Source: Escherichia phage FH3. From it: DNA of 64,000 nt. This document shows positions 44,581-45,607 of the stretch, piece by piece. The notes under the pieces were generated by a model. The model saw only the letters and a list, made by a program, of their open reading frames with translations. It had not been told where the DNA came from and made no database searches. How positions within the stretch are numbered: the stretch's first letter is position 1; each line of letters begins with the position of its first letter. Location of the stretch: sequence record OR886155.1. One strand, given 5' to 3'. Both the position numbers and the translations under genes were made by a program.

Positions 44581-44963
44581 TCTCCAGTGATTTCCATATC
44601 GGCTTTATCTCCTTTCTTAGTAAGGAGGATTGCTGGTTTATTCTTACTCTTCATATACTCAAACATATGCATAGAGCCTCTTGACTCTCCATCCCAGAAG
44701 ACTATCACTGCATCTGCATACTCACCCATGTCTACGTTTCGAAGTATCCCAGCCTTTTTGCCGAGAGTGTTCCACGAAGGAATGAAACGTTTGATAGGTA
44801 TGTCATTATGTTTAGCAACAGCCTCTCCGTGAAGATCTGGACCTCTTGCACCACCTGACACAACTTCTGAAATCAGCTTGGGGATTTCCTCTGGAAGCAA
44901 AGCCCACATCTGAGTAAAAGAATGCCAGTCTATCGACCGGCTTCCTGCGATTATTACTTTCAT
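44571..44963 (-). CDS. SLOG/DUF2493-like small Rossmann protein
   Basis: IIAGSR...[10 protein letters not shown]...FWDGESRGS pattern. Confidence 0.45.
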
Positions 44964-45607
44964 GTAATCAATCCTTGAAACTCTTCTTTATCGAAGTGTT
45001 TTTCTACCACATATTCATACAGATCTTTTAACTCCGCATATCTACGGTAGAATGTTCCGTGTGACATTCCAATGGTTTTCTGGATGTGGTCATGCGGTAT
45101 TCCCAAGAAGATCATAGAGAACATATTGGCTAACTTCTGAGTATCCATCGTATCACTTAAATCTTGGAAGAAATAGAAGATACGAGACTCCATGAATGGG
45201 TCTCCAACACAATCTTGCTTATCCATAGCAATCTCTAAAGGACTATCAACCATATCAGGAGTACGGAACATATCAGCCTCTGGAATTGAGTAGATACGAC
45301 GGTCCCCTACAGTCTGCCTATTTGAACGTATAGACCAGATAATATTCTTGACTCGATAAGTCATATGCTCTTGGTCTTTCTCATCCTCTAGGACTCTCTC
45401 ATCCTGCTTAGCGAAGACAAATCTCCAAGCATTCAAGAGCACTTCCTGTGCCACATCTTCTGCTTCATGGTAATCCCTGATATCGTACATGAAGAACTTG
45501 TGAACCACTTTCCAGTTCACTTTATAAAACTCTTCATAGTTTGAGATATATTTGATTGGGATTCCATGAATTCGATATCTTGTAGGTGTTGTTTTCTTCG
45601 CCATCAT
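44960..45607 (-). CDS. phage-encoded sigma-70-family (ECF-like) sigma factor
   Basis: Region-2-like [14 protein letters not shown] and C-terminal HTH-like [22 protein letters not shown]. Confidence 0.55.

Follow-up and report, generated by a model that had tools for sequence, protein, structure and literature searches.

A gp36-type alternative sigma factor in Escherichia phage FH3, its middle and late promoters, and a candidate seventh promoter beside a conserved noncoding element

Escherichia phage FH3 encodes what is almost certainly the ortholog of phiEco32 gp36, the Kuravirus alternative sigma factor, and promoters of the gp36 type stand in front of its middle and late genes. The 64,000-nt stretch of OR886155.1 that we analyzed, referred to here as the window, contains an intact minus-strand ORF of 215 aa at 44960..45607. 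A search of solved structures with the encoded protein returned chain F of PDB 9M7Y, titled 'RNA polymerase ECF sigma factor', with an E-value of 3.3e-145 and 213/214 residues identical. The protein is likewise identical to phiEco32 gp36 (phi32_36) at 213/214 positions, and the single difference from either sequence, S132C, falls in the inter-domain linker. PDB 9M7Y is a cryo-EM complex in which gp36 is bound to E. coli RNAP together with gp79 and cognate promoter DNA (PMC12276001), and all 23 of the contact residues published in that study (clamp, -10, -35, flap tip, and gp79) are identical in the FH3 protein. Together with a match to PHROG 1740, 'RNA polymerase sigma factor' (E=3.5e-45), the structural hit confirms the first-pass annotation, which had read this ORF as a sigma-70-family gene. 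The true start is likely the second ATG, at 45604, because phi32_36 is annotated as 645 nt, because the PDB chain (9M7Y_F) starts MAKK, and because the spacing of the AAGGA Shine-Dalgarno sequence is better for this codon than for 45607. The gene would then span 44960..45604 on the minus strand and encode 214 aa, extendable by one ATG to 45607.

The phage-specific promoter class read by gp36 is already known, having been established between 2008 and 2025, atomic structure included. [quoted passage not shown] The common element of gp36 promoters is AATGTA, centered at -11.5 (PMC12276001). According to PMC4281155, Pavlova et al. 2012 described six promoters, three middle and three late, in which tAATGTATAtA lies 6–8 nt upstream of the start points; PMC4281155 itself lists the homologous SU10 promoter sequences (S2 table). 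In the published structure, the gp36 NTD (residues 1–103) lies against the clamp helices and recognizes -14A, -13A, -12T, and -11G via N95, S91, S94, E79, and H80, with W90 and Y83 stacking at the fork junction; the CTD (residues 138–214) binds the flap tip helix and directs R187 to -37G and Y186 to -34A; and the linker threads the active-site cleft in the manner of sigma3.2 (PMC12276001). The second phage protein, gp79, displaces sigma-70 region 4 and stabilizes the gp36 open complex, activating P26 4-fold and P68 3-fold (PMC12276001).

We propose that the same sequence of events would operate in FH3. The host sigma-70 holoenzyme would first transcribe the sigma gene from a TGGACA-18-TATAAT promoter, and the gp36-type protein would then replace sigma-70 on the host core RNAP. 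Its N-terminal, sigma2-like domain would dock on the beta' clamp helices and read AATGTA from -14 to -9, with W90 and Y83 stacked at the fork junction and N95, S91, S94, E79, and H80 contacting bases, and its C-terminal, sigma4-like domain would bind the beta flap tip, from which R187 and Y186 would reach -37 and -34. Joined by the small phage protein gp79, this holoenzyme would serve the minus-strand middle genes and the plus-strand late structural genes. Our own basis for the proposal is protein identity, conservation of the contact residues, and the presence and placement of cognate promoters; RNAP binding, sigma activity, and gp79 activation come from the literature on the 99.5%-identical phiEco32 protein (PMC12276001).

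The genomic setting of the sigma gene agrees closely with that of its relatives. The window belongs to a Kuravirus; its DNA is 99.9% identical to that of Escherichia phage 1-6af and 97% identical to that of SU10 and phiEco32, and the sigma gene is labeled 'hypothetical protein' in 1-6af and RNA polymerase (ECF) sigma factor in SU10 and phiEco32. When mapped by blast against phiEco32, the window proved to be a permuted Kuravirus genome, with early genes on the minus strand (1–11955), a single copy of the 193-bp terminal repeat (11763–11955), late structural genes on the plus strand from the end of the repeat (11955) to 41711, and middle and early genes on the minus strand (41785–64000). The window ends at phiEco32 coordinate ~50421, which places the gp79 gene outside it, since phiEco32 gene 79 lies at 52601–52849; a tblastn search of the 64-kb window with gp79 gave no match below E=0.2. 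Synteny with phiEco32 genes 33–40 is preserved, at 96.7% DNA identity. The sigma gene lies in the middle-gene block between a SLOG/'GTP-binding' gene and a macro-domain gene, and no anti-sigma gene adjoins it, the neighbors encoding a SLOG-domain and a macro-domain protein. It also lacks an autoregulated promoter of the ECF type. Its own promoter is of the sigma-70 type, consisting of TGGACA, an 18-nt spacer, and TATAAT (45655..45626, minus strand); it matches the consensus at 11/12 positions and is the best such site in the 6-kb region scanned. Only a degenerate gp36-type motif, TAATGTTTA, is present upstream of the gene. A sigma-70 promoter with an 18-nt spacer likewise belongs to the SU10 sigma gene (PMC4281155).

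To define the gp36-type promoters of FH3, we used a list of six sites drawn from the SU10 S2 table (PMC4281155) and PMC12276001, taking the first A of AATGTA as the promoter position and placing AATGTA at -14..-9. Five of the six listed promoters were found in the window with 39/39 to 40/41 identity to the SU10 entries, and all five are intergenic, correctly oriented, and situated 19–67 nt upstream of a start codon. Three of these are late promoters on the plus strand. P6 (SU10 'CDS3-4'; 13233..13265, AATGTA at 13258, ATG at 13277) combines TTGGGA at -39..-34 with tAATGTAgA and is identical to SU10 at 39/39 positions. P13 (SU10 'CDS10-11'; 20906..20938, AATGTA at 20931, ATG at 20972; 39/39) and P26 (37219..37251, AATGTA at 37244, ATG at 37290; 39/39) are the two strongest late promoters, and they share TAAGACCTA at -38..-30 as well as tAATGTAtA. 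P26 has been used in published in vitro assays, where it is active (PMC12276001), and its site is conserved in five IMG/VR relatives. The remaining two are middle promoters on the minus strand. One lies upstream of the gp40 homolog (47044–47790) and corresponds to SU10 'CDS37-38' (47850..47882, AATGTA at 47857, ATG at 47790; 40/41); it is conserved in 18/18 loci, comprising the window and 17 relatives. The other, P68 (60140..60172, AATGTA at 60147, ATG at 60100; 40/41), carries TTGGTA at -39..-34 and aAATGTAtA. P68 is the promoter in the cryo-EM structure (PMC12276001), and the published contact bases G-37 and A-34 fall exactly within its TTGGTA. All six gp36-type sites in the window, that is, these five and a further one at 47898–47930 described below, carry T-38, a purine at -37, and A-34.

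The sixth listed promoter, which in phiEco32 lies at 42944 on the minus strand between genes 58 and 59 (the P59 region), is missing from the window. In place of the corresponding segment, the window has a 109-aa HNH-type ORF (54816–55145), and the promoter was lost to this HNH-endonuclease insertion. An inserted HNH endonuclease ORF also lies directly after the P13 promoter; the gp13-like query proved to be an HNH endonuclease of this inserted kind. The expectation raised by the first-pass annotation, that late or structural genes should share a promoter distinct from the host sigma-70 consensus, is met by tAATGTAtA in front of the plus-strand late operons and has been shown experimentally for the near-identical phiEco32 protein. 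It was drawn too narrowly in one respect, as the same promoter class also serves the minus-strand middle genes.

We also searched for gp36-type sites beyond the published list. In a PWM scan of the 64 kb, the best five matches were all intergenic, in a sequence of which 11% is intergenic; because the PWM was trained on these promoters, the result shows only the absence of other strong sites. The scan revealed no further strong intergenic gp36-type site, and matches within coding sequence occurred at 24114 (plus strand) and 46945 (minus strand). Allowing one mismatch, TAATGTATA is not over-represented genome-wide (25 copies against 20.5 expected). Since the motif count is at chance, the evidence for these promoters comes from their position, orientation, and context and from their homology to promoters that have been mapped. 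An unbiased k-mer enrichment of intergenic DNA, an analysis with little power in one genome, was headed by CGCTCTTT (boxA) and by terminator and RBS words, and for the gp36 motif the same-genome enrichment recovered only GTAATGTAT, with 3/3 copies intergenic.

[quoted passage not shown] Such an arrangement would accommodate the sigma-70-like -35 hexamers (TTGGTA) that the SU10 authors recognized at some middle promoters and the sigma-70-like promoters that they placed before a few left-end genes (PMC4281155). However, in the structure R187 and Y186 of gp36 reach to the G-37 and A-34 bases of TTGGTA, and gp79 shuts off the sigma-70 holoenzyme while activating the gp36 holoenzyme (PMC12276001). 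Furthermore, the -10 regions of the middle and late promoters are AATGTA, not TATAAT.

At the level of sequence, the gp36-type sigma is a two-domain, ECF-like, and very divergent member of the sigma-70 family. The 214-aa FH3 protein consists of an NTD (1–103), a linker, and a CTD (138–214), without region 1.1 or a sigma3 domain. In gp36, helices alpha2–alpha4 of the NTD adopt a sigma2-like fold, and the CTD adopts a sigma4-like fold with a shortened alpha4 (PMC12276001). Generic models detect this relationship faintly: Pfam Sigma70_r2 matches residues 32–63 with 18.3 bits against a curated cut-off of 24, and NCBIfam TIGR02937 (sigma70-ECF) aligns residues 23–192 with profile positions 3–157 of 165 at 22.5 bits, compared to a cut-off of 42.9. 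Sigma70_r4 and r4_2 gave no match to the protein, even at E<=10. The 14-residue region-2-like segment noticed earlier corresponds to residues 48–61 (214-aa numbering), within the sub-threshold Sigma70_r2 match, and the C-terminal HTH is represented by a GTFYRRY recognition helix in the C-terminal part, so both observations hold up. Because generic sigma models match weakly and below threshold, 'region-2-like' was the right description for a divergent sigma. A single-sequence AlphaFold2 model reached a pLDDT of 42.9, too poor for a test of the fold, and the fold argument therefore rests on the published structure.

The sub-threshold scores and the lack of a Sigma70_r4 match would also suit a protein that is not a sigma factor at all, such as an HTH transcriptional regulator or an anti-sigma-like RNAP binder with no more than a resemblance to region 2. 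We consider this extremely unlikely. In the cryo-EM open complex, the 99.5%-identical gp36 sits on RNAP where sigma2 and sigma4 would be, and transcription in vitro has been obtained with RNAP core and gp36 alone (PMC12276001). Moreover, of the 13 weak NCBIfam matches to the FH3 protein, 12 are sigma-factor families.

Two recurring elements had been put forward in the first-pass annotation as candidates for the promoters of this factor, namely the CCTTTAT repeats at 12188–12367 and TTAAAGAGCG, and neither survived scrutiny. The CCTTTAT copies (12171..12367, plus strand) lie within a 25-nt direct repeat (12171–12195 and 12201–12225), accompanied by weaker copies, among the small ORFs of the left end. 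They do form a local cluster, with three copies in 180 nt (12188–12367), but genome-wide CCTTTAT occurs at chance frequency (12 copies against 9.8 expected), and the cluster precedes no structural operon. No AATGTA motif is present in 12171..12367, and the SU10 authors assigned the region of small left-end ORFs to a sigma-70 promoter in which the late consensus is absent (PMC4281155). TTAAAGAGCG, on the other hand, is enriched beyond chance: 13 matches were counted where 4.2 are expected, and 0/100 shuffles reached 13. However, all four of its exact copies fall within 8525–9150, in a noncoding early-promoter region of ~1.8 kb, where they lie on the strand opposite early transcription; none precedes a late gene. 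Neither CCTTTAT nor TTAAAGAGCG resembles the experimentally defined AATGTA element, and there is virtually no chance that the two are promoters of the FH3 sigma factor.

Reverse-complemented, TTAAAGAGCG gives the consensus boxA, CGCTCTTTA, and its copies are not gp36 promoters. The window thus contains four consensus boxA elements in the sense orientation of the early transcripts, at 9150–9142, 9042–9034, 8768–8760, and 8534–8526 on the minus strand, and the transcribed-strand readings of the four copies are CGCTCTTTAAAAA (twice), CGCTCTTTAACAA, and CGCTCTTTAATAA. For comparison, the boxA of rrn operons is UGCUCUUUA and that of lambda is CGCUCUUA, and conversion of the lambda boxA to the consensus enhances N activity (PMC2724277). 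Two sigma-70 early promoters, each with an 11/12 match, were located on the minus strand at 9101–9073 and 8653–8625. The boxA at 9042–9034 lies ~25–30 nt downstream of the -10 of the nearer promoter, and the corresponding distance for the boxA at 8534–8526 is ~85–90 nt. No promoter was located for the copy at 9150–9142, which is upstream of the 9101 promoter, or for that at 8768–8760, and no counterpart of the SU10 early_b promoter was found in the window. phiEco32 has four boxA copies at the same places, of which two to three follow the -10 of an early promoter by 15–30 nt. Further downstream, the early operon contains strong minus-strand terminator-like hairpins at 6779, 5305, 5220, and 2801.

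The location of boxA in the leaders of sigma-70-driven early transcripts suggests Nus-dependent antitermination, and from sequence and position we consider Nus-factor-dependent antitermination of these transcripts the most likely role of the repeats. The elements resemble the boxA of rrn operons and of the lambda nut sites in that four exact copies of CGCTCTTTA stand in the sense orientation and one reads CGCTCTTTAACAA, as in rrn; they differ in being repeated four times within 625 bp. If this assignment is correct, a virulent podovirus borrows the host Nus antitermination machinery for its early transcription.

Besides the five listed promoters, a promoter-like site of the gp36 type, the seventh when all six published ones are counted, lies at 47898..47930 of the plus strand, back-to-back with the gp40 promoter. 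Its -10 region, tAATGTAtAtA (47922–47932), lies in a 300-bp gap between the gp40 and gp41 homologs, and the 14-mer TTGGTAGTAGATAT at 47898–47911 is identical to positions -39..-26 of P68 and in the same register. The site is oriented away from gene 40 and opposite to all of the neighboring genes. It is absent from the six sites of the SU10 table (PMC4281155) and may stand in the mapping of Pavlova et al. 2012. The comparison took in 18 loci (the window and 17 relatives; 15 distinct sequences) from Kuravirus and Suseptimavirus, where gp40 identity falls as low as 83%. Averaged over each segment, the frequency of the most common base is 0.94 at -39..-27 and 1.00 at -15..-5, against 0.57 in the spacer (-26..-16) and 0.65 upstream of -40, and such a bipartite footprint of conservation is as expected of a promoter that is used.

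Downstream of the seventh site lies a conserved noncoding element, a candidate RNA of ~160 nt (47937..48095, plus strand). No ORF in 47937–48095 survives both alternative versions of the 5' part, and the 3' 100 nt are nearly invariant in the 18 loci, more so than the flanking coding DNA. The predicted fold has a free energy of -45.8 kcal/mol (z = -2.33). Compensatory base-pair substitutions occur in its 5' hairpin (C-G to U-A or A-U, and U-A to G-C), which also includes several G-U pairs that fit a plus-strand RNA only. Nearly all of 98 phage records leave the element unannotated. Neither Rfam nor 5,426 E. coli genomes contained a match to 47937–48095, nhmmer with the element found no match within 3 kb on either side of the gp40 homolog in three distant relatives, and a scan of IMG/VR for the exact core returned only five contigs, which were already in the comparison set.

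Three readings of this element could be entertained from its sequence and surroundings. It could encode a gp36-dependent small RNA, or it could belong to a transcription-activated (or primed) origin beside the AT-rich stretch that adjoins it at 48095–48160; GC skew tracks the direction of transcription in this genome and is uninformative on an origin. Alternatively, its long hairpin, which on the minus strand is followed by TTTTTAT, could be merely a bidirectional terminator of the gene 41–47 operon. We put at roughly even the chance that a seventh Kuravirus gp36 promoter drives a structured noncoding RNA of ~160 nt or activates an origin, with boxA antitermination acting separately on the early transcripts. 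If that were so, the phiEco32 regulatory circuit would gain an RNA or origin function from a gp36-dependent noncoding transcript, and the seventh promoter would provide a clean extra substrate for gp36/gp79 biochemistry.

The sigma factor itself is a rediscovery of a textbook-style phage strategy whose components (sigma, promoters, co-activator, and initiation-complex structure) have already been published. Its practical value lies in annotation, as the closest record, phage 1-6af, carries the gene as 'hypothetical protein'. The boxA repeats, and the candidate seventh promoter together with the noncoding element that it faces, could matter more than the sigma gene.

Compared to known systems, FH3 is closest to phiEco32 and its gp36 (9M7Y_F, PHROG 1740), with which it shares 213/214 residues of the sigma factor, the neighboring genes, tAATGTAtA before the same genes, and a sigma-70 promoter of the sigma gene with an 18-nt spacer. 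It differs from phiEco32 by S132C, by an HNH ORF in place of the P59-region promoter, and by an HNH ORF after P13. The likeness to ECF (group 4) sigmas, such as E. coli sigmaE, is more general: the protein is small, with sigma2-like and sigma4-like domains joined by a linker, it gives a weak full-length match to TIGR02937, and in gp36 the region-2 helix binds the clamp helices (PMC12276001). In contrast to these sigmas, gp36 has a first helix rotated by ~70 degrees and a shortened alpha4 in the sigma4 domain, and the flap tip helix is turned by ~100 degrees (PMC12276001). The FH3 protein additionally scores below the family cut-offs, and an adjacent anti-sigma partner is replaced by the co-activator gp79. 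The gp36 -10 element, AATGTA, is read partly as duplex (-14 to -12) and is unlike the AAC/CGT-type -10 motifs of ECF sigmas. As a regulatory strategy, the system parallels T4 gp55 and B. subtilis SPO1 gp28 and gp33/34, which redirect the host core RNAP to a phage promoter class in a temporal cascade; to our knowledge, gp36 bears no detectable sequence relationship to T4 gp55 or to the SPO1 sigmas. T4 gp55 is a region-2 fragment only and needs gp33 and the sliding clamp, whereas gp36 has both domains and uses gp79.

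A gp36-type promoter-like site (gp36 being the phiEco32-type alternative sigma factor) and a facing noncoding element occupy 47898-48095 (+). The site carries a -35 14-mer identical to that of P68, the middle promoter at 60147 (-), together with tAATGTAtAtA, and it is oriented against the neighbouring genes. The noncoding element that it points towards is a conserved, structured segment of ~160 nt. Comparison of 18 loci gave a bipartite conservation footprint at the site, and almost all of 98 phage records leave site and element without annotation.

With AATGTA set at -14 to -9, all six gp36-type sites of the window have T at -38, a purine next to it at -37, and A at -34. 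Among the late promoters, the two strongest have TAAGACCTA in common, exactly at -38 to -30 (20907-20915 and 37220-37228, +), while middle P68 and the new site (47898-47930, +) carry TTGGTAGTAGATAT in its place; it is possible that the upstream element differs between middle and late gp36 promoters. A further TAAGACCTA together with TAATGTTTA, a gp36 motif with one mismatch that directly follows it, spans 45671-45688 (-). This pair precedes the sigma gene by 64-80 nt and is located just upstream of that gene's sigma-70 promoter. It could provide weak autoregulation or be a coincidence.

Within 13258-13279 (+), the P6-like late promoter precedes the ATG of ORF 13277 by only 19 nt. The predicted start would leave a leader of ~5 nt that lacks the GGAG Shine-Dalgarno sequence, and hence a near-leaderless mRNA is predicted. 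The small left-end ORFs are preceded by a recurrent translation-initiation context, CTTTATCAGAGG, several nucleotides and ATG (12232-12243, 12371-12382 and 12411-12422, +), which probably accounts for part of the impression of repeats that the first-pass annotation, with its CCTTTAT elements, had of this region.

Noncoding region 7711-9484 combines strong sigma-70 early promoters with four boxA elements at 8526-9150 (-), all exact matches to the consensus CGCTCTTTA and one present as CGCTCTTTAACAA; two of the four lie downstream of a located promoter. Further downstream, the early operon contains strong terminator-like hairpins at 6779, 5305, 5220 and 2801. The same four boxA elements are found in phiEco32.

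A 193-bp segment present in single copy at 11763-11955 corresponds to the two ends of the linear genome of phiEco32, and the window therefore crosses the junction of the terminal repeats, as a concatemer or a circularly permuted assembly would. At 841-919 (-), Rfam places a marginal tRNA (29.7 bits; gathering score 29), whereas ARAGORN found no tRNA there. phiEco32 has a tRNA-Arg near this position, but 812-1905 of the window shares no homology with that genome. phiEco32 lacks two HNH_3 homing-endonuclease ORFs of the window: one (20972-21484, +) is inserted directly downstream of the late P13 promoter, before the gp13 homolog, and the other (46621-47034, -), flanked by gp39 and gp40 homologs, is shared with SU10. 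A further HNH-type endonuclease ORF (54816-55145, -), which scores 21.0 bits with Pfam HNH, just below the cut-off of 21.4, stands in place of the segment that in phiEco32 bears the third middle gp36 promoter (phiEco32 42944-), so that FH3 lacks this promoter.
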